Part shown: positions 30,239-40,343 of the stretch, one piece after another
How positions within the stretch are numbered: the first letter of the stretch is position 1
Layout of the letters: each line of letters begins with the position of its first letter
Assembly (NCBI GenBank): GCA_964538375.1
Contig: CAZIFQ010000001.1
Location: forward strand, 35,463 to 99,462
Length of the DNA stretch: 64,000 nucleotides
Direction: 5' to 3'
Source: an uncultured Bacteroidaceae bacterium
GTDB lineage: Bacteria > Bacteroidota > Bacteroidia > Bacteroidales > GCA-2748055
Translations under genes and position numbers: made by a program
Notes under the pieces: generated by a model
What the model was told of the DNA's origin: nothing
Seen by the model: only the letters and a program-made list of their open reading frames with translations
Database searches by the model: none

Positions 30239-31474
30239 ATGACAAAATCATCCGACGACAGACTCAAAAGAACAAAATTCAAGCTAAATGCCTTGTTGGA
30301 TATTACACTGGCCATCAATGAAAATGACTCCACAGAAGAACTCATACGCCGATTTGAAAAATTGCTGGTAGATGATTTACATATTGGAAAGGTGATGATG
30401 ATTAAACTGGGTGAGAAATGGAACTGCTTGCTGAACTCAGGATTTTCACATGATTTCTTCAAGAATTTAAGCATTAAAAATGACCTGCTTACTTTTAGTG
30501 AAATCTCCTACATCACATCTGAGCCAGATCTGTTTCCTGAACCGGTAGACATAGTCATACCTGTTACCGATAAAGACAAACCTATTTCATATGTACTGAT
30601 CGGAGATATTGAAGAAGAAGGACATATGGTAAGTCCGATCATTAAGCATGTTCGATATATCCAAACGCTCTCGAATATCATCACTGTTGCTATTGAAAAC
30701 AAACGGCTGTTTAAGGAATCTCTCCAGCGGGAAGCCCTGAAGCGAGAGATGGAACTTGCCAGCAAAATGCAGAATATGCTTATCCCGACAAAGGAGCGCC
30801 TTCCTTCCAATAAGCATATTAATATGTATGCTTTCTACCACCCTCATTTCGAGGTGGGAGGCGATTATTATGATGTGCTGGAGCTGAATAAAGAGGAGAT
30901 CGGATTCTGCATTGCAGACGTGTCAGGTAAAGGGATCTCTGCCGCCTTACTTATGTCAAACTTCCAGGCCAACCTCCAGGCTCTTTTCACAGAAGATATA
31001 TCACTGGAAAAACTGGTGACAAAGTTGAATACCCGGGTTATGGACAGTGCCAATGGGGAAAAATTCATTACCCTTTTCATTGCCAAGTACAATTACACCA
31101 CCAGGGAACTGAAATTTATAAATGCAGGTCACAATCCTCCCTTAATGTACAACATCACTAAAAAGGAGTTGATACATTTAAAAAACGGAACTGTTGGAAT
31201 GGGAATGCTCGATGACCTTCCCTTTGTTAATGTACAATCTATGATCCTTGATGATCCATCAAAGCTTTTCTGTTACACCGATGGACTGGTAGAGGTACTG
31301 GATGAGAGCGGGGTGGAATTTGGGACTGATAAGCTTGAGGTGGAGTTGAATAACAGCATGAACATCGAGAACAACATTAATACTATCATTGCCAAACAAA
31401 AAATCCTGGAGGGCAGTGCCTCAATCTTCGACGATATCTCAATTATTGGTGCCGATTTTCCGGGAATCACTTAA
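30239..31474 (+). CDS. PP2C-family (SpoIIE domain) protein phosphatase with N-terminal GAF-like sensor
   Basis: 411 aa. EVGGDYYDV...FCIADVSGKGISAALLMS...FCYTDGLVE are SpoIIE/PP2C motifs. Confidence 0.8.
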   Translation: MTKSSDDRLKRTKFKLNALLDITLAINENDSTEELIRRFEKLLVDDLHIGKVMMIKLGEKWNCLLNSGFSHDFFKNLSIKNDLLTFSEISYITSEPDLFPEPVDIVIPVTDKDKPISYVLIGDIEEEGHMVSPIIKHVRYIQTLSNIITVAIENKRLFKESLQREALKREMELASKMQNMLIPTKERLPSNKHINMYAFYHPHFEVGGDYYDVLELNKEEIGFCIADVSGKGISAALLMSNFQANLQALFTEDISLEKLVTKLNTRVMDSANGEKFITLFIAKYNYTTRELKFINAGHNPPLMYNITKKELIHLKNGTVGMGMLDDLPFVNVQSMILDDPSKLFCYTDGLVEVLDESGVEFGTDKLEVELNNSMNIENNINTIIAKQKILEGSASIFDDISIIGADFPGIT

Positions 31475-32987
31475 GATCCTCTGGTTTTTCTTCCAACACC
31501 TCTTCCATTTTGGTTCGACCTATGGTCTCCCCTGGCTCATCCTTGACCCGGTTCTCCTTGTGATAAATATCCATGGCAACCAGCATTCCGGTAAATCCCC
31601 AGAATAAAGCGGAAGCCTTATCTGTGTCCAGGAAATTATTAAGTATGCCATGAATGTAATAGGTAATCAATCCAATTAAAATACCCAGTGAAAATATTCT
31701 TATCGACCTCGATTGTGCCCTAATATACACCCTGATTCCGGTAATGATTGCAGTAACTATAATGATGAGCATACTAAGCATCCCAAGCACTCCTGATTCT
31801 GATAAAGGGCCCAAATACTCACTGTGTGCTGTTCCCCTGATTCCAAAATCTGTGCTAATTTCAGTTTTTTCAAATGATCTCTGAAATTTACCATATTCAA
31901 ATTGAAAAGTTCCCGGTCCATAACCAAAAATCGGCCTGTCTTTCCACATCCTGTATGCACAGCTCCAACGGTTGATCCTTTCCAGATTCGATTGATCATT
32001 ACTTACATTGGAGATAGATTGAACATGCTCTCCAAAATCTCCAGAAGATTTTTGGTTGTTCCCTTCCAGGTTCATTAAAATCTGGGTCTGGAAAACAAAG
32101 AACAAGGCAAATATTACAAGCCCGGCAATGGCAAGTATTTCAAACTTGATGCGCATCCTGATTACTATCCATATAGCAAATCCACCAACAAGACTTACCC
32201 AGGCAGCTCGTGTATATGAAAAAACTGTGGCGGCAACAAATACCAGGATAAGCAATATCATTAAAAACCTGGAATTAATATCCCCTCGTTTTGTCAGTCC
32301 GAAAAAAGCCAACAACACGGGTAGCAACAAAGCTAATGTAGCACCATAGGAAGTATGATCTTTGTAAAATGGCTGCATCATACTATGCGCCATCATCTGG
32401 TTATCTAATCCGTAAGCTGAATGTCTGATGATAGTATATGCAATGACCACCGCAAAGGATATCACATATAGCCAAACATACTTGTGCATGTTTTTCTCCC
32501 TGCGAAATACCTGTATGGCAAGAATATAAAACCCGACAATAAACCATAAACGGGAAACAAAAAATTTCACTGAAACTAGTGGGTCGCTGCTGGTGATTAC
32601 TGTAACTGCCATCCAGGCCAGGTTAAAATAGATAGCAATAGAAACCGGATGCCTGAGTATCTTCAAGTCCATCCTCTCCCCGCTTAAATATTTAAAAAGA
32701 AACACTAAAAGCAAAGCTGCAAGCAAAGGTTCAGTCGGGAGATAAAGGTCGACCGGCAATCCTTCCATGAGTTCGCTTAATGGAATCGATAAGGGTACAA
32801 AAAATACAATGATGTACAATAATACATCAATCCGGGTAAAAGCAATAAGAAAAAATAACAAAGCGGCAGGGAGCAATGGCAGATAAAAGAACTCCAGTGC
32901 AATGCACACGGTGTTCACTGCAATGAATGCAATGGCTGCTATCCACACCCAAAGCATCTTTTGTCGACGCCCCCTTGCCTCTTGCAT
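31467..32987 (-). CDS. O-antigen ligase (Wzy_C) family membrane protein
   Basis: 506 aa and polytopic. FSYTRAAWVSLVGG and GYGPGTF...AHSEYL are characteristic. The start overlaps the Wzz stop (TAATG). Confidence 0.75.
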   Translation of the reverse strand: MQEARGRRQKMLWVWIAAIAFIAVNTVCIALEFFYLPLLPAALLFFLIAFTRIDVLLYIIVFFVPLSIPLSELMEGLPVDLYLPTEPLLAALLLVFLFKYLSGERMDLKILRHPVSIAIYFNLAWMAVTVITSSDPLVSVKFFVSRLWFIVGFYILAIQVFRREKNMHKYVWLYVISFAVVIAYTIIRHSAYGLDNQMMAHSMMQPFYKDHTSYGATLALLLPVLLAFFGLTKRGDINSRFLMILLILVFVAATVFSYTRAAWVSLVGGFAIWIVIRMRIKFEILAIAGLVIFALFFVFQTQILMNLEGNNQKSSGDFGEHVQSISNVSNDQSNLERINRWSCAYRMWKDRPIFGYGPGTFQFEYGKFQRSFEKTEISTDFGIRGTAHSEYLGPLSESGVLGMLSMLIIIVTAIITGIRVYIRAQSRSIRIFSLGILIGLITYYIHGILNNFLDTDKASALFWGFTGMLVAMDIYHKENRVKDEPGETIGRTKMEEVLEEKPEDLK

Positions 32988-33961
32988 TATTCTTCTTTCT
33001 TCAGCGCAGTTCTGTCTTTCAGACTATCAATAATAATCAGTAAAATGAGGGTGAGCAAAAATGCAGATGCCGTAGATACCATTACAATGATGGATTTCTT
33101 TGGATAAGCTTTTTTCTCTGAAGCATAGGCCCGGTCGACAATAAATTTATGGGGTAGATTCTGAACGGCCTCCACCCTTGCTTCCTTATATCTTTGGCGC
33201 AGATCTGCAAGAACGTCTGTTTCATGATCCAGTCGATTAGTCATAGTAAGGACAGTCCCTCCATGTTCGGCAAGGGCTTTCATAGCAGTTGAAATATTGT
33301 TATTGCCACTTTGCGTAATGCTAGCAGAAATTTCCTGTCCCATCTTTTGAACTGATTCCTGAAGGAGATTAATATTTTCTTCCGCCTCTAGATATTCATA
33401 TTCAACCAGCTTCAATGCGGCTAGTGCCCTCTCTTTCTTCATGGCGCTATATACCGTATCAATGAGGTCAGAGATATCATTGGCAATGTCCGCTGCCATT
33501 TGTGGATCTTTGTCCATTACAGCTACCTCAACCGACATAAACTCCGTCCGCCTTGCACTGATATTATTCCTGTACTCTGCATTCAGCTGAGTATATGGAT
33601 ACTTCGATGAAGGATCAATATCATAGTGCTCCATCAGCTTATATTTCACCATGATACGCTCTCGTATCAACGCAGAGTTCAAAACCTGTAACAATTGTTC
33701 CGCCTGCTCCTCTTCACCAAATCCATAGGCATCCTGTCGCCCCATATAATTGGAAGATAGCAGTGATTTTGATATAGATGCTCCCGTGGTTGGAAACATA
33801 ATAACTGAAGATTTATACTTCGGAGTAATCTGGTAGGAAACCACGATGGAAGCAACCGCTGCTACCAAGCTAACTATGAGTAGAATCATTCTCTTTTTCC
33901 ACATATAGATCAACAGATCTACGGAGCTGAAATTATAGCTCTTTTGTTCTTTGTCGCTCAT
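32987..33961 (-). CDS. Wzz-like polysaccharide chain length determinant protein
   Basis: 324 aa with an N-terminal TM followed by ITPKYKSSVIMFP, a coiled-coil middle and a C-terminal TM. Confidence 0.65.
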   Translation of the reverse strand: MSDKEQKSYNFSSVDLLIYMWKKRMILLIVSLVAAVASIVVSYQITPKYKSSVIMFPTTGASISKSLLSSNYMGRQDAYGFGEEEQAEQLLQVLNSALIRERIMVKYKLMEHYDIDPSSKYPYTQLNAEYRNNISARRTEFMSVEVAVMDKDPQMAADIANDISDLIDTVYSAMKKERALAALKLVEYEYLEAEENINLLQESVQKMGQEISASITQSGNNNISTAMKALAEHGGTVLTMTNRLDHETDVLADLRQRYKEARVEAVQNLPHKFIVDRAYASEKKAYPKKSIIVMVSTASAFLLTLILLIIIDSLKDRTALKKEE

Positions 33962-33972
33962 GCTTATGTATT

Positions 33973-35259
33973 TTATTGTATGCTTATTAAAAAGTAATTC
34001 TTTTTCCCCTTTTGAATAAGGAGATATTTACCATTAATGAAATCTGCTCCACTTACCCGTGCCTCCGGATCAGATATTTTTTGTTTATTGATGCTCACTC
34101 CACCTCCCTTGATAAGCCGCCGAAGCTCACCTTTGGACGGAAATACCGTGGTATGTTCTACCAGGAGTGTCATAAGTTCTGCGTCCACCTGATCCTTTGA
34201 AATTGTGAACTGGGGAACACCTTCAAAAACTGCCAGGAACATCTCTTCCGGTATCTTGCTCAAAGTTTCACTTGTCGCTTTTCCAAATAAGATCCCTGAT
34301 GCCTCAACAGCCATTTCATAATCATCACGTGAATGCACCATTACCGTCACCTCCTCTGCAAGTCGCTTCTGCAATATCCTTTGGTGGGGTTCTTTCTGAT
34401 GATCAGAGACGAGCTGGTCAATCTCTTCTTTTTTCAGCATAGTAAAAATCTTGATATACTGATCTGCATCATCATCAGAAACATTCAACCAGAACTGGTA
34501 AAATTTGTATGGAGAAGTTCTTGCCGGGTCCAGCCAGACATTTCCCTCTTCGGTTTTTCCGAATTTTCCTCCATCTGCTTTCGTGATTAAGGGACAGGTC
34601 AGGGCATAGGCCTCTCCACCTTCCTTGCGTCGGATCAATTCTGTACCTGTTATAATATTTCCCCACTGGTCTGATCCACCCATCTGCAACTGGCAATCAT
34701 ACTCACGATATAAATTAAGGAAATCGAAACCCTGCACAAGCTGGTAGGTAAATTCTGTAAATGACATTCCAGTTTTCGACTCTGCACTTAAACGTTTCTT
34801 CACAGAATCCTTCGCTATCATGTAATTCACCGTGATATGCTTTCCTATATCCCTGATAAACTCCAGGAATGAATATTCCTTCATCCAATCATAGTTGTTT
34901 ACCATCAATGCCTTATTGGACACCTCCGTTTCAAAGTCCAAAAATTTACTGATCTGGGCCTTCAAACATTCCTGGTTATGTCTCAGGGTAGGCTCGTCAA
35001 GGAGGTTTCTCTCCTGCGATTTGCCACTCGGATCACCTATCATTCCTGTTGCTCCTCCAACAAGGGCAATCGGACGGTGACCAGCATGCTGAAAATGTTT
35101 CAACATCATCACTCCCACCAGGTGTCCAATATGCAAGGAATCAGCCGTTGGATCAATCCCAACATAAGCTGAAGCCATCCCTTTTCCAAGACACTCTTCC
35201 GTTCCTGGCATGATATCATGTATCATCCCTCTCCACCTTAGCTCATCAACAAAATTCAT
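33973..35259 (-). CDS. tyrS: tyrosine--tRNA ligase
   Basis: 428 aa with the HIGH motif (DSLHIGHL), the KFGKT motif and a C-terminal S4-like domain. Confidence 0.95.
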
Positions 35260-35295: not shown

Positions 35296-35847
35296 TTAAA
35301 TTTCAGTATTACTGTCTGTTACATCTTCTCCATTTGATTCATCTCCCGGAAGCCATTCCCTAAATTCAGCACGCTTTAAATAAGGAAAAACAGCAGGTGC
35401 AAATTTCGATAAAGGCACAAATAACAAAGATTTCTCTACAGTTTCTTCGCTAATAAAAGCTTTCTTACTATTTACAGCTGAAACAGGCATCAGTATAATA
35501 CTAATGATAAATGCATAAAGCAATACTCCAAAAGCCATCCCTGCCAGTCTGTTAATAAAATTCAGAGCCACTGCCTTTATCAGCTTATCAACCAGGAAGG
35601 CAGCCACATGAACCACTATAACAATCAGAACGAAAGTCACTGCAAAGGAGATTAAATTCTGATACTGTGGATTTATCTCAAACCACCCGTTCAATATATC
35701 TCCCATTCTTTCATGAAAGCGCATGGCGCCCAGAATACCTAGTACCAAAGCAGTTATTGAGGCAATCATATACACCAGGCCTTTTTTAAATCCCCGGTAC
35801 AATGCCCACAATAGTGGAATGGCAATAATTATATCTAGAATGTTCAT
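35296..35847 (-). CDS. cvpA: CvpA family membrane protein
   Basis: MNILDIIIAIPLLWALYRGFKKGLV and four TM helices. The ATG at 35847 is preferred over the track start at 35874. Confidence 0.75.
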   Translation of the reverse strand: MNILDIIIAIPLLWALYRGFKKGLVYMIASITALVLGILGAMRFHERMGDILNGWFEINPQYQNLISFAVTFVLIVIVVHVAAFLVDKLIKAVALNFINRLAGMAFGVLLYAFIISIILMPVSAVNSKKAFISEETVEKSLLFVPLSKFAPAVFPYLKRAEFREWLPGDESNGEDVTDSNTEI

Positions 35848-36020
35848 ATTTTTTTGCGACAACAAAATAAGCAATTCCTTTTCAATAACGGAGAAATTTT
35901 ATCAAGTATTATGTTGACTTTGAAGGGAAAATACAACACCAGGCCACCATCTTTGCCTGAAACTCTTGCTTAGAACAGAGCTTTGATTCGTACAATATTG
36001 CATATCTCAACAGAATAAAT

Positions 36021-36056
36021 TAACTTAATCCTTGATTCTAATAACTTAAATCCTTG
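36021..36056. repeat. direct repeat TAACTTAA(A)TCCTTG x2, 21 nt start to start, ending at the start of the 36060 ORF
   Basis: Copy 1 is 36021-36034 and copy 2 is 36042-36056, read directly from the sequence. Confidence 0.6.
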
Positions 36057-36059
36057 GCC

Positions 36060-36725
36060 ATGGAAATTAAAAAATTCAGAAACCATTATGGACTGGAGCT
36101 CATTGCAGCACCGCATGCGGGAATATCATTGGGTGACCTGGTATGGGACTCTCTCCTGGGGGCGCCCGAATTCAGCCATCCCGGAATGCCAAACACTATA
36201 AGCACCGCATTTCTTGATGCCGGGTTGATAGATGAAGAGGAGTTTACTTCTTTTCACAAAGAATTTTCCTCCATTGCGTATATCAAAGCACATTTCCCGG
36301 AAAGAACAGTTGATATCAGATCAGAGGTACTGGGAGAGCTGAAACATCCTACGCTGGGAAGTATTGAAGGAAATTTCAAACTTGATCACATCAGTAAATT
36401 CACTTTTGGAGAATTGCTGGTAAAAGAGATGGATGATATGACCAGGGTAAAGATTGACCAGTACCTGGAGCTCATGAAAGAGAAAAAATGGGCTGAGTAT
36501 GATGGAAAAATCCGTCGCGTCTATATGATTACAGAACTATATGTTGGATCCATCAAACTCGTGGTTGAAAAATCCCTCAGCGGAAAATTCGATGCTGCAC
36601 TTGAGCAAGGAGGATTATCGGTAACTTCAAAATCTGAGGGAAGCAAATCAGTAGAATATGCTTTTTCCCATGAAGAGGTTCCTTTTGCAATGCGAATTGA
36701 AGAGGTAAAGTCTTTTAACGGATAA
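36060..36725 (+). CDS. hypothetical protein; candidate gasdermin-N-like beta pore-forming fold (tentative)
   Basis: 221 aa from the ATG at 36060 (the track uses the TTG at 36054), with no signal peptide. The order of elements resembles the gasdermin N domain (LELIAAPHAGISLGDLVW ... RRVYMITELY ... IKLVVEKSLSGKFDAAL ... LSVTSKSEGSKSVEYAFS..VPFAMRIEEVK). The CDS itself is solid. The family assignment is by eye only. Confidence 0.4.
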   Translation: MEIKKFRNHYGLELIAAPHAGISLGDLVWDSLLGAPEFSHPGMPNTISTAFLDAGLIDEEEFTSFHKEFSSIAYIKAHFPERTVDIRSEVLGELKHPTLGSIEGNFKLDHISKFTFGELLVKEMDDMTRVKIDQYLELMKEKKWAEYDGKIRRVYMITELYVGSIKLVVEKSLSGKFDAALEQGGLSVTSKSEGSKSVEYAFSHEEVPFAMRIEEVKSFNG

Positions 36726-36763
36726 AAAAAGAGACGTATCATATGACACGTCCCTAAATCTTC

Positions 36764-36901
36764 TTAAAACTTCTGTCCAAACACCCATCGGGCAGACAAG
36801 GCCGTATTAAACGACAGGCCACGTGCGCCAACTCCAACCTGCGCTGAGGCACTAAATGCAAATAATAGTATTATGCTAAATGAAAATAATAACTTCTTCA
36901 T
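36764..36901 (-). CDS. 45-aa signal-peptide mini-ORF (OMP-like N-terminus plus terminal Phe)
   Basis: It falls below the ORF-track length cutoff. MKKLLFSFSIILLFAFSASAQVGVGARGLSFNTALSARWVFGQKF. The N-terminus resembles the OMP at 61684-62331 (MKKIIFISIAFLMISASALAQLDRIGVGLSFS). Confidence 0.3.
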   Translation of the reverse strand: MKKLLFSFSIILLFAFSASAQVGVGARGLSFNTALSARWVFGQKF

Positions 36902-36951: not shown

Positions 36952-37644
36952 TTATGCCAGAAAACTCAAAATCTCCTCAAGACCATTAACTTCAAAAAAA
37001 TTGCTGCTCTCCGGCTTTCGATCAACTTTTTCATGTTCCCAGGTCGTGTGATAGGGAACATGGATAGCATAAGATCCCAATTCCAGGGGAGGTAAAATAT
37101 CTGATTTTAAGGAATTCCCTATCATAACGAATTTCTCAGGAGCAATCTCAAGGTGCTTAAGCAGGTTCCTGTAATTTTCTACCTGCTTATCACTCATTAT
37201 TTCGATATGATGGAAATACCTGGAGAGAGAGGATCTGAATAATTTTCTCTCCTGGTCAAGTAAATCACCTTTCGTTGCCACAATCAATTTGTATTTCCCA
37301 TGAAGCTGATCCAGTACCTCCTTCACTCCAGGTAAAAGCTCAATGTCTTTTTCGAGCATCTCTTTTCCCATGTCTATAATGGCCATGATGGAAGCTGGGG
37401 AAATTTTTCCTTTGGAGATACTGATCCCATTTTCCAGCATTGACAGCACAAATGCCTTGATGCCAAAACCGTATTTTGATAAATTGCTCATCTCCGTATC
37501 AAAGAGCGTCTTCATCACTGTTTCCCGATCAGCAAATTCACTTAGTAATTTTACATAAGCTTCCTCCGTATCACGGTAATAGGTCTCATTCACCCATAAG
37601 GTGTCATCCGCATCAAATCCAATTACCTCAACTTTGCTTTTCAT
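36952..37644 (-). CDS. HAD family hydrolase
   Basis: 230 aa with the motif I VIGFDADDTLW, a later ATKGD and IGNSLKSDI. Confidence 0.8.
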   Translation of the reverse strand: MKSKVEVIGFDADDTLWVNETYYRDTEEAYVKLLSEFADRETVMKTLFDTEMSNLSKYGFGIKAFVLSMLENGISISKGKISPASIMAIIDMGKEMLEKDIELLPGVKEVLDQLHGKYKLIVATKGDLLDQERKLFRSSLSRYFHHIEIMSDKQVENYRNLLKHLEIAPEKFVMIGNSLKSDILPPLELGSYAIHVPYHTTWEHEKVDRKPESSNFFEVNGLEEILSFLA

Positions 37645-37712: not shown

Positions 37713-40343
37713 TTACAGCAAAATAGAATTAAACAATAACTTGAAAGAAGCCTGGCTTGAAGCACGGAATTGCGGATTAAATCCAAACAATACCAGCTGT
37801 CCTTCTCCCTTTTCCATCCAAATCATTACGCTCTTGTTGCTTAGCTGTTCTTCATTCCCTGCATAACCACTCATGAGAATCTCTTTCTCGGGATGTGAAG
37901 CAATCACCCGTCTGTCCATGTCAAATCCGGGTACACTGGTCTGAAATACTGGTCGACCACGTGAAAAGACTCCTGTTTCTGCCGGCATTCCCAGGGTTAG
38001 TGGATGGTCCTGCAACACCTCAATTTTCAGCAGACTCCCGGGAATATAAAGCCCCTTACTCGTTAATTGTTTGGATATATCCCTGAAGGGCAACTGAAAC
38101 TCTTCTGTTTCATCTCCTTTTTTTATTTTTAATAAGCCGGAAAACAGGTTTGTAGATTGTCCCCAGGAAATAATCAATCCTCCCTTATCAATGAATGTCA
38201 TGATCTCTTCAAAACCCTCTTTCCCCATTCCTTTCATATAATCCGGATGGTAATTTCCTATGTAATAGCTATCCCCTGATTTTCTTTTGCCCTCCATCAA
38301 GAGGTCCTTATTGCTGTCCGGAAAAATAATTACATCATAATTCTTTGACACTTCAGCTTTCTCTATTTCATCCGGATGTACTATTGTGAAAGGTATATTA
38401 TACGTGTCAAATACAAATCTTGTCCAGCCCGCATCCATATCGTGGAAGTACGTTTCAACCAGCGCAATCCGGGGCATCTCTATCGCTTCACTCTTCAATT
38501 CGATATCCTTAGAAACTTCAATAGCCGGAATTGTCATTTCCGCAACGAGTTTCCTGGCTACTTCTCCATTTTTACCTTCAAGTGACACCACAAAACTTCC
38601 TTTTTTTACTATTTCTCCGCCAATATGCACATCAAGGGATAGCCGCTCAACTGTTATTCCTTTCTCCATTGCGGCAAAAGCAGTCCTAAAAGATTCATTT
38701 GCATTCACCGGAAGTATCACTGTTCCTGCATCGCCCGCCAGTGGTTCTGACAAACTATACGTATCATCAATCATTGCCAGGTTTTTTTCCAGGACCTCAA
38801 CCCTGGTATTAATCTCATACGAGGCAACATTGCGATGCAATGGTAATGACCAACTGGTAATATCATAGGGCTTAATCAATTCACCTCCAGGCGTATAGTG
38901 CCTTTCCGGAAAAGTCTGTTTTTCCATCACTTCCTTAACAAATGCCCGAAATGGCTGAGCCAGCGGGATAACTACATCTCCCTTTACATAAGCCCTTCCT
39001 TCCACGGTCATATTCTTTATAAGCGTGTACAAATTTATCCCGTGCTCCTTCAGGAGAGCAACCATGTTTACCAATTCGCCCTGGTCATGTTGCTTCTCGG
39101 GCATGATATAATAATATGGCGGCTGTGTTTGTCCTGCTTTTACATTGCTTACACATATATCGTTTCTGAAACTAAGAATATCTTCACGGTGATTTGAGGC
39201 AGTTTTGAGAATGGACATTGTTGATACAATTTCATATTCAACAATATCTCCCAATCTCCACCATCCGCCTTCCCAGGGAAGCAGCATATTTATACTTTTC
39301 TTATACTCAGAAAGTCCTTTCCCTCCTACGCGAAGTTCATTAGGTTCAATATAAATTGGAGTTGCTGTTTTGGCGCTGGCTACCTCGGTAAGAAAACCAA
39401 TAACATTTTTCCAGATGCATGTTTCTGTTGATCCGGGCCAATAATCATCAAAGAGGTAATGCTGGGAAACTCCACTTAGATTTTCTCTTGTCATATCATT
39501 CACCATATTCTGACCGAATAGTCCGGACCAGGTAAAAACACCCGCCGGAACATTTTCAGCAATGGGATCATGGTTGGGAGGGACAAAAAATCTTGTTCCG
39601 GTAGATCCCATCTGGTGTTTTTCAACCATCACCTGCGGGAACCAGTTAAGATTGTAGATGCCCGCTATAGCTTTTGTGTCTTCCTGGCTCAGGATGACAA
39701 AATCCCGGTTGTTGTCATGCCCTACATACTTATGATAAACCGACGGCAAAGAGGCGCCTTCATATTTAGTCCCCTTATACTTCATATAATTATTTACTAT
39801 CATATCCATTCCGTCCGGATTGTGATTTGGAACCATCATGTACACAACATTGTTGAGCCATTCCAATTTTTTCTCATCACTTGTTGTAACAAGATCATAG
39901 GCAATTAGCGGGGCCGACTGGGCAGGACCAACTTCACTAGAATGCATCGATAATGTACCTAGAACAAAGACCTTGCCTTCGGCAATCATTTTATCTCGTT
40001 CATGCTTAGGAATATTTGGATCAAGCGCCAGTCGCTTATTCATTTTTTTATACTCATCCAGTTTAGCAATATTTTTTTCGCTGGATAGAAATACGATATA
40101 CATGGGTTTCCCCAAAGGTGAGTTACCAATCTTCTCCAACTTTATGCGGGAAGATACTGTTTCCAATTCCTGCAAGTAGCCAATTAGCTTTTCATATGTG
40201 AAAAGATTCCTATCCGATCCCGGGGTAAATCCAAAATAGGAATCCGGCTTTACCGGCTGGGTTTCCTGGGCGTATATTGAAGATGAATGAAAAAGAATTA
40301 TTGAAACAAGAGCAAGCAAAGAGAAAAACAATTTTCTTTTCAT
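37713..40343 (-). CDS. M14 family zinc carboxypeptidase-like protein, secreted
   Basis: 876 aa with a signal peptide. MMVPNHNPDGMD...VGHDNNRDF are M14 zinc/substrate motifs, followed by a long C-terminal extension. Confidence 0.8.
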   Translation of the reverse strand: MKRKLFFSLLALVSIILFHSSSIYAQETQPVKPDSYFGFTPGSDRNLFTYEKLIGYLQELETVSSRIKLEKIGNSPLGKPMYIVFLSSEKNIAKLDEYKKMNKRLALDPNIPKHERDKMIAEGKVFVLGTLSMHSSEVGPAQSAPLIAYDLVTTSDEKKLEWLNNVVYMMVPNHNPDGMDMIVNNYMKYKGTKYEGASLPSVYHKYVGHDNNRDFVILSQEDTKAIAGIYNLNWFPQVMVEKHQMGSTGTRFFVPPNHDPIAENVPAGVFTWSGLFGQNMVNDMTRENLSGVSQHYLFDDYWPGSTETCIWKNVIGFLTEVASAKTATPIYIEPNELRVGGKGLSEYKKSINMLLPWEGGWWRLGDIVEYEIVSTMSILKTASNHREDILSFRNDICVSNVKAGQTQPPYYYIMPEKQHDQGELVNMVALLKEHGINLYTLIKNMTVEGRAYVKGDVVIPLAQPFRAFVKEVMEKQTFPERHYTPGGELIKPYDITSWSLPLHRNVASYEINTRVEVLEKNLAMIDDTYSLSEPLAGDAGTVILPVNANESFRTAFAAMEKGITVERLSLDVHIGGEIVKKGSFVVSLEGKNGEVARKLVAEMTIPAIEVSKDIELKSEAIEMPRIALVETYFHDMDAGWTRFVFDTYNIPFTIVHPDEIEKAEVSKNYDVIIFPDSNKDLLMEGKRKSGDSYYIGNYHPDYMKGMGKEGFEEIMTFIDKGGLIISWGQSTNLFSGLLKIKKGDETEEFQLPFRDISKQLTSKGLYIPGSLLKIEVLQDHPLTLGMPAETGVFSRGRPVFQTSVPGFDMDRRVIASHPEKEILMSGYAGNEEQLSNKSVMIWMEKGEGQLVLFGFNPQFRASSQASFKLLFNSILL

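Follow-up and report, generated by a model that had tools for sequence, protein, structure and literature searches.

The DNA analysed here, a 64 kb window from the genome of an uncultured Bacteroidaceae bacterium, contains a single copy of a gene (36060..36725, plus strand) encoding a 221 aa protein that is very probably a divergent homologue with the gasdermin fold. The gene lies between the divergently oriented cvpA-tyrS pair to its left and the HAD hydrolase and M14 peptidase genes to its right, the neighbours named by a first-pass annotation, which had proposed an orphan gasdermin-N-like protein lacking both a protease partner and a C-terminal inhibitory tail. Taken together, our data show that the gene is a minimal, tail-less, cysteine-less and protease-less homologue of the bacterial gasdermins (bGSDMs), fixed as a core gene, and with a putative pore activity. 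The gene and the elements of its product are the following, with secondary structure taken from AlphaFold2 (AF2) models and invariant residues from the alignments introduced below.

36060..36725, plus strand: gasdermin-like gene, ATG to TAA, 221 aa and stop
36066..36089, plus strand: N-terminal amphipathic helix, residues 3-10 (EIKKFRNH), from AF2 secondary structure
36090..36152, plus strand: beta1-beta2 motif, residues 11-31 (GLELIAAPHAGISLGDLVWDS), aligning with residues 19-40 of the Bradyrhizobium bGSDM 7N50 (GINLILPPRDNIAPGDLIIADP)
36294..36425, plus strand: proto-finger 1, residues 79-122, with a period-2 amphipathic pattern in a hydrophobic-moment scan of alignments A1 and A2
36435..36512, plus strand: central helices, residues 126-151 (the QYLELMKEKKWAEYDG block), from AF2; W144, Y147, D148 and G149 invariant
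36513..36569, plus strand: core strand, residues 152-170, with RRVYMITELY, aligning with RNFFVVTKVW of the Bradyrhizobium bGSDM
36537..36668, plus strand: proto-finger 2, residues 160-203, comprising a strand, helix 171-184 and hairpin 190-193/197-202 with the turn E-G-S
36681..36722, plus strand: last core strand VPFAMRIE (208-215) and the 6-residue end EVKSFNG, from conservation and AF2

The ORF was confirmed as first called, and an in-frame TTG two codons 5′ of the ATG would lengthen the protein by only two residues. All orthologues share the N-terminus MEI(K/R)KF and all end in FNG at residue 221. The protein has a polar N-terminus and neither a signal peptide nor a transmembrane segment (maximum Kyte-Doolittle hydropathy of 1.01 over 19 residues), as the first-pass annotation had also noted of the signal peptide, and it is predicted to be cytosolic and soluble. 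It is acidic, with 36 aspartate and glutamate residues against 26 lysine and arginine residues, and there is no cysteine among its 221 residues.

That this is a real gene is evident from its family. A protein database search returned 306 homologues, nearly all of exactly 221 aa and all annotated as 'hypothetical'; none carries a Pfam domain, and those with a named source come from metagenome-assembled genomes (MAGs) of Bacteroidales or Bacteroidota. An exhaustive hidden Markov model (HMM) search of 1.84 billion representative proteins recovered only 145 representatives of the family, and the full-length ones are nearly all single-domain proteins of 212-234 aa; this is thus a small and compact family without fusions. 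Its members occur almost exclusively in uncultured Bacteroidota. Pairwise dN/dS values, for pairs with unsaturated dS, range from 0.055 to 0.29 and mostly fall between 0.07 and 0.13, so that the family, at about 0.07-0.19, is under strong purifying selection.

Three protein alignments were used: A1, with 44 sequences, represents the clade of the window protein (hereafter the window clade); A2, with 81 sequences, includes distant relatives; and A3 represents a distant clade that is positive for the PADLOC bGSDM model. In A1, 32 of the 44 members are free of cysteine and 53 columns are invariant, including the C-terminal V-P-F-A-M-R-I-E...F-N-G and, around the core strand, I151, R152, V154 and T158-Y161. 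The turn H96-P97-x-x-G100 within proto-finger 1 is likewise invariant. Across the superfamily, conservation is highest at P208-F209-A210, and F6 of the N-terminal helix is nearly invariant as well (at least 90% in A2).

Structure prediction points to the gasdermins. The AF2 model built from A2 (predicted local distance difference test score, pLDDT, of 92; predicted template-modelling score, pTM, of 0.86) shows the twisted antiparallel sheet with peripheral helices of the gasdermin N-terminal fold. When this model was searched against the PDB with Foldseek, its only significant matches were the four chains (A-D) of 7N52, the gasdermin of Runella zeae, with E values of 2.6e-5 to 1.4e-4, a probability of 1.0 and template-modelling (TM) scores of 0.46-0.53; the next match had an E value of 0.04. 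An AF2 model from a shallow alignment (pLDDT 71) ranked the same Runella bGSDM and the Vitiosangium bGSDM pore 9A84 first, and also matched cholesterol-dependent cytolysin (CDC) toxins. The MACPF/CDC toxins (pneumolysin, perfringolysin, CDCL) share with the window protein a twisted sheet accompanied by helices of the kind that can turn into hairpins, but they are far larger, secreted and multi-domain, and they appear only as low-ranking Foldseek matches (best CDC matches with E 0.04-0.5, probability of at most 0.2 and TM of at most 0.33); the window protein is not a member of that group. The gasdermin-N-like fold that the first-pass annotation had read by eye was thus recovered by structural modelling, which returned the Runella bGSDM, and it has in addition an indirect link in sequence.

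That link runs through the distant relatives of the protein. The A1 profile reaches distant full-length relatives of about 220 aa with E values of 1e-8 to 1e-66, and hhalign aligns A1 with A3 over the full length with 99.9% probability (E 4.5e-32). As for the comparison with gasdermin profiles that the first-pass annotation had put forward, the window protein itself gave no direct match, but 32 of the 81 A2 members matched PADLOC bGSDM, with a best E value of 2.1e-10, and no other PADLOC family matched more than one of the 81. Among the individual scores were those of P0224 (6.9e-9), P0261 (7.6e-7), P0205 (2.6e-4) and P0124 (2.3e-4), the last being 42% identical to the window protein, and P0224 also has a weak precomputed match to Pfam PF26164 (Bact_GSDM). 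The PADLOC matches are always co-linear, residues ~100-216 aligning with profile positions 97-214 of 257. Compared with the Bradyrhizobium gasdermin 7N50, the A2 profile aligned in two co-linear blocks, with an overall E value of only 0.53: 'gleLLpashesiklGdlv' against 'GINLILPPRDNIAPGDLI', and 'irrvyiiteLYY' against 'RNFFVVTKVWRA' through 'evPFAmklek' against 'QLIFGLTLRE'. The first of these, the beta1-beta2 alignment, is weak on its own and co-linear with the main match. The distant-clade alignment, used as the query against the protein database, recovered only four proteins. Matches of the protein or the A1 profile to SHOCT (E 0.1), biotin ligase (E 0.26) and CoA-transferase (E 1.4) were regarded as noise, and a match of A2 to the peroxiredoxin 3DRN (E 0.011, N-terminal 77 residues) was rejected as local, of unrelated fold and unsupported by the structure.

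The sequence motifs quoted in the first-pass annotation are all present, and the elements that it assigned to them were found in the AF2 model: its helical block corresponds to helices 126-151, its hairpin with a KSEGSK turn to the hairpin 190-193/197-202, which turns within KSEGSK, and RRVYMITELY, which it had paired with the gasdermin '..YVVTEV..' strand, lies in strand 155-170, in agreement with the HMM alignment to the Bradyrhizobium 'RNFFVVTKVW'. The alternation of polar and apolar residues described there is family-wide and is concentrated in residues 79-122 and 160-203, where family-averaged hydrophobicity alternates with a period of two. Period-2 hydrophobic-moment peaks span residues 79-110 and 160-194, with a third peak at 124-137 in the central helices, and the pattern is kept across the family at identities from 20% to 80%. 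In the AF2 model, the finger regions consist of short helices and strands between long strands (in proto-finger 1, short helices 88-91 and 97-103 followed by the long strand 111-123), and they are the least confident part of the shallow-alignment model, with proto-finger 1 as its lowest-confidence region. In canonical bGSDMs, the fingers form when helices alpha2'', alpha2''' and alpha4, together with strand beta7', refold locally. The modelled arrangement is as expected for a resting gasdermin with refoldable fingers, and the model would depict a resting conformation in which the two future membrane 'fingers' are folded as helix-strand motifs. The amphipathic proto-fingers support, but do not prove, a capacity for membrane insertion.

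The setting of the gene is that of the core genome. The neighbouring features of the window are listed here; for the comparison, ~14 kb was inspected at each related locus, alongside the 64 kb of the window.

30239..31474, plus strand: SpoIIE/PP2C-type phosphatase with an N-terminal GAF-like region, in the same conserved syntenic block as cvpA-tyrS
31467..33961, minus strand: Wzy_C/Wzz pair, in the same conserved syntenic block as cvpA-tyrS
33973..35259, minus strand: tyrS, left of cvpA and divergent from the gasdermin-like gene
35296..35847, minus strand: cvpA (Colicin_V family inner-membrane protein, PF02674), the invariant divergent neighbour
35848..36059: divergent intergenic region between cvpA and the gasdermin-like gene, included in an alignment of 24 intergenic regions (A4)
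36730..36755: GC-rich hairpin with an 11 bp stem, starting 5 nt after the stop codon of the gasdermin-like gene
36764..36901, minus strand: 45 aa ORF, convergent, right of the gasdermin-like gene
36952..37644, minus strand: HAD hydrolase, convergent, on the right side
37713..40343, minus strand: M14 peptidase with an obvious signal peptide, convergent, on the right side

The gene is carried by 68 species-level genomes, all of them uncultured MAGs. In the clade of at least 52% identity, cvpA lies upstream in all 47 loci with enough upstream DNA, the start of the gasdermin-like gene being ~500-880 bp from the cvpA match, and the whole left arm (efp, the SpoIIE-type phosphatase, Wzy_C, Wzz, tyrS and cvpA) is the same in 47 of 47. 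The right arm is variable and holds HAD, GNAT, Metallophos, M14 or OMP-like (outer-membrane-protein-like) genes. At 52-71% identity, the protein has diverged between loci about as far as the CvpA and Wzz encoded beside it, which, with the strict synteny, argues for a vertically inherited core gene and not for a component of a defence island. No members were found in phages, plasmids or viral contigs (IMG/VR scans with three queries, and tblastn against phages and plasmids), and a fold search of BFVD with the model returned nothing. The gene belongs, in single copy, to the core genome of an uncultured Bacteroidales lineage and is no mobile defence gene. Every locus has one copy, and one MAG has copies on two contigs, which could reflect a strain mixture. 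The adjacency to cvpA is genomic context, not a demonstrated partnership.

The window protein shares its core fold with the described bGSDMs of Runella zeae (7N52), Bradyrhizobium tropiciagri (7N50) and Vitiosangium (7N51/9A84), which are represented by PF26164 and PDLC02986. The likeness extends to co-linear blocks (the G-x-L-[IL]...G-D-L beta1-beta2 motif, the 'R..[FY].[VI]T[EK][VL][WY]' strand and the last core strand), to helix-containing proto-fingers with a beta-amphipathic periodicity, and to the general format of a cytosolic, single-domain protein of ~220-260 aa. The differences concern the elements that hold canonical bGSDMs in check. All described bGSDMs are kept inactive by a C-terminal peptide, usually together with a buried palmitate, and are released by a neighbouring protease, which reviews give as the rule. 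According to the founding bGSDM paper, all solved structures have a cleavage loop of ~12 residues and a C-terminal peptide of 16-30 residues that braces the sheet and whose removal is toxic; most canonical bGSDMs have a palmitoylated Cys3 or Cys4 buried in a hydrophobic tunnel; and 43 of 50 adjoin a protease gene, whereas seven do not.

In the window protein, which is ~40 residues shorter at its C-terminus, the final strand of the AF2 model spans residues 210-215 and is followed by only six residues. Members of the family end at about position 214-215 of the 257 positions of the bGSDM profile (end-points 213-217) and opposite residue 217 of 259 in 7N50; they therefore have neither a cleavage loop nor an inhibitory peptide at the C-terminus, and the missing tail proposed in the first-pass annotation was substantiated. 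The palmitoylatable N-terminal cysteine is missing too: none of the 81 members of A2 has a cysteine in its first eight residues, and the N-terminal helix occupies the place of the palmitoylated Cys3/Cys4 of canonical bGSDMs. The lack of a protease partner also held across the family, as no caspase-like, CHAT, trypsin-like or cytoplasmic subtilase gene adjoins the gene in the 47 syntenic loci or in ~17 non-syntenic contexts, and no protease, NLR-like or CARD-like genes adjoin it at the loci of the window clade. The protease-type neighbours seen in a few loci are exported M14 or S8 peptidases only, such as the 1487 aa Peptidase_S8/PKD-repeat protein next to one distant relative, for which size and domain content point to secretion. 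The M14 peptidase of the window was rejected as an activator: its signal peptide marks it as exported, and only six of the 68 loci carry it. A defence-island or mobile context, typical of bGSDMs, was likewise not found, the setting being a vertically inherited housekeeping locus in 47 of 47 cases, and the window protein escapes direct detection by bGSDM HMMs.

How a gasdermin core without these elements could work is suggested by eukaryotic systems. In reviews up to 2026 (PMC12547243, PMC13475620), every bGSDM is said to have an inhibitory peptide of 12-100 residues and to require proteolysis, and they name cleavage-independent, single-domain gasdermins only in eukaryotes, namely TrichoGSDM of Trichoplax and RCD-1-1/RCD-1-2 of Neurospora (Li et al. 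2024 Science, as relayed in PMC12547243 and PMC13475620). Like the window protein, TrichoGSDM and RCD-1 consist of a gasdermin-N-like domain alone, with no inhibitory C-terminal domain or peptide, so that their activation cannot be tail removal; by analogy, these are the systems that the window protein most plausibly works like. The parallel has its limits. TrichoGSDM is inactive as a disulfide-linked homodimer and the window protein has no cysteine, RCD-1 uses two antagonistic allelic partners (an allelic heterodimer) and only one copy of the window gene is seen per locus, and neither eukaryotic system is detectably closer to the window protein in sequence.

Our data are best accommodated by a model, which we regard as probable though far from settled, in which the protein is a minimal, highly divergent gasdermin core that acts as a latent membrane permeabilizer with a proteolysis-independent switch. 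Without a tail, the protein would have to be activated by some means other than tail removal. In such a model the resting state would be intrinsically stable, the N-terminal helix with F6 and the C-terminal F219-N-G possibly standing in for the palmitate and the peptide latch, and the lack of a lipid anchor would raise the barrier to insertion. The change to an inserted beta-hairpin form would be triggered by another cue, such as the state of the membrane or envelope, a binding partner or the level of expression, and the outcome would be regulated lysis or sublytic permeabilization. Two published properties of canonical bGSDMs make it plausible that a tail-less form is tolerated: the resting structure without the C-terminal peptide (delta-CTD) is stable in molecular dynamics, and loss of the palmitoyl-Cys strongly reduces pore formation. 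An anchor-less core may thus fire slowly and need another cue.

Some distant relatives have neighbours that hint, from gene content, at a role in lysis. In a Flavobacterium sp. MAG (L075, 2908-4853), a 145 aa membrane protein with weak holin matches and an Amidase_2+SH3_3 endolysin precede a homologue of 222 aa with 34% identity and the C-terminus VPFAMRIERIKHFNT. At L061 (4270-7666), a CHAP+PG_binding_1 hydrolase, a 323 aa membrane protein without a Pfam match, a patatin-like phospholipase and a 221 aa homologue follow one another on one strand, a row that may represent a lytic or defence module. At L009 (2650-6058), the distant homologue P0243 follows a GerE-type HTH gene, and a large terminase gene ~1.3 kb away on the other strand hints at a prophage-like region; the phage collections contained no match. 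Such contexts echo phage holin-endolysin cassettes and hydrolase-linked bGSDM operons (PMC9612521), but neither the window gene nor any other member of its clade adjoins a hydrolase or holin gene.

Several observations weigh against the model of a latent, proteolysis-independent permeabilizer, or against the homology on which it builds. The lysis-cassette contexts just described amount to two or three cases, confined to distant relatives and absent from the window clade. No regulator, trigger or partner of the gasdermin-like protein was identified at the loci inspected. Tail truncation is toxic in canonical bGSDMs, so that a tail-less protein encoded by a core gene may have lost lytic activity. 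At the level of the fold, the TM score is ~0.5, the root-mean-square deviation is 6-8 Å and identity to 7N52 is 13-15%, and the Foldseek list lacks 7N50 and 7N51, leaving the Runella protein as the sole significant structure. At the level of sequence, the link to bGSDMs is transitive: Pfam, NCBIfam, PADLOC and PDB sequence models do not match the window protein or its clade directly (PF26164 having been checked through precomputed annotations, which show it in none of the 306 homologues), and PADLOC bGSDM (PDLC02986) matches none of the 44 members of the window clade at E<=10.

The alternative that best survives these data is that the gasdermin fold has been exapted, so that the protein, although a true homologue, would form no lytic pores and would serve a non-lethal membrane housekeeping function, for example in lipid or envelope maintenance and possibly with CvpA. 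The strictly syntenic core-genome site, an evolutionary rate close to that of cvpA and Wzz under strong purifying selection, and a locus with no regulator, protease or immunity-like partner would all be natural for such a protein, the toxicity of tail-less canonical bGSDMs is easier to square with a non-lytic role, and the palmitoyl-Cys that has been lost is a promoter of insertion. We nevertheless find exaptation unlikely, because the period-2 pattern of both proto-fingers, preserved between 20% and 80% identity, is hard to explain without membrane strands, some distant relatives adjoin peptidoglycan hydrolase, holin-like and patatin genes that point to lysis, and there is no positive evidence at the loci for a specific housekeeping function.

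It is also conceivable, but very improbable, that the protein is not a gasdermin at all, its twisted beta-sheet with helices being a chance or convergent likeness and the PADLOC matches compositional or local. The window clade has no direct profile match, a TM score of ~0.5 at ~13% identity is low, the A3 profile finds no gasdermin in the PDB, and the E value of A2 against 7N50 is 0.53. Such a coincidence would, however, have to account for a Foldseek probability of 1.0 with the top four matches belonging to the same bGSDM, the agreement of two independent models, the recurrence of bGSDM as the only PADLOC family (32 members versus at most one) with matches that reach E 2e-10 and are always co-linear, an independent weak Pfam Bact_GSDM match, and N- and C-terminal blocks that are co-linear with 7N50. 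Finally, a canonical defence gasdermin activated by a protease that is encoded elsewhere and cuts at an internal or unrecognized site is very improbable: seven of the 50 originally described bGSDMs are not beside a protease and the inspection extended over 64 kb here and ~14 kb per related locus, but the protein ends six residues past the last core strand with no removable tail, has no PADLOC defence signature, lies outside any defence island, with the same housekeeping neighbours at all 47 loci, and has no counterpart in the plasmid, phage and viral-contig collections.

We found no published description of an orphan, stand-alone or cleavage-independent bacterial gasdermin in a literature search that covered subscription journals in part. 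It is tempting, if still tentative, to see here the first proteolysis-free bacterial gasdermin, a tail-less and anchor-less pore-forming core kept as a housekeeping gene throughout a Bacteroidales lineage, with a non-proteolytic cue and a non-defence role. If so, it would parallel TrichoGSDM and RCD-1 on the prokaryotic side and might lie near the state of the family before proteases were involved, and its physiological use could be regulated autolysis, release of cell contents or sublytic permeabilization. The reviews leave open how general the inhibition of bGSDMs is and whether bGSDMs act outside phage defence, and a conserved clade in a housekeeping locus that is free of the known controls makes both questions directly testable: whether the bare core is intrinsically inactive, whether other triggers exist, and whether a bacterial gasdermin can have a role other than defence. 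Current HMM-based defence finders and Pfam miss this whole branch of the bGSDM family.

The intergenic region upstream of the gene offered little sign of shared regulation. In A4, the sole universally conserved block lies at ~35862-35884, 15-37 nt upstream of the cvpA ATG (plus strand, ACAAA..AA...A....TT...A); read on the minus strand it resembles the -7 element of Bacteroidota (TAnTTTG-like), and it is probably the promoter of cvpA. The 24 intergenic regions showed no operator common to the clade in front of the gasdermin-like gene, and a sigma-70 promoter scan is uninformative for Bacteroidota. Downstream, the T-run of the hairpin is on the minus strand, so that the hairpin probably serves the convergent small ORF; it may also end the gasdermin-like transcript, and its position suggests that the gasdermin-like gene is transcribed alone.

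Copies with 45-48% identity were seen on contigs binned as Chlorobiota, Nannocystaceae and Myxococcales (L060, L064 and L065), as a result of either horizontal transfer out of Bacteroidota or mis-binning. Three length variants are probably artefacts of assembly or gene calling: P0212 (339 aa) has the first 64 residues of the family followed by a long Ser/Thr/Gly-rich region, P0219 (289 aa) has an N-terminal extension of 75 residues, and P0112 (256 aa) reads through the stop codon for 35 residues.

Lastly, the 45 aa convergent ORF (MKKLLFSFSIILLFAFSASAQVGVGARGLSFNTALSARWVFGQKF) has a signal-peptide-like start, and its residues 1-29 and 29-44 match the N- and C-termini, respectively, of a secreted OMP-like protein of ~148 aa found at ~14 related loci, where the two matching regions are encoded ~400 nt apart. 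As it matches both ends of the longer protein, the small ORF looks like the remnant of an in-frame internal deletion.

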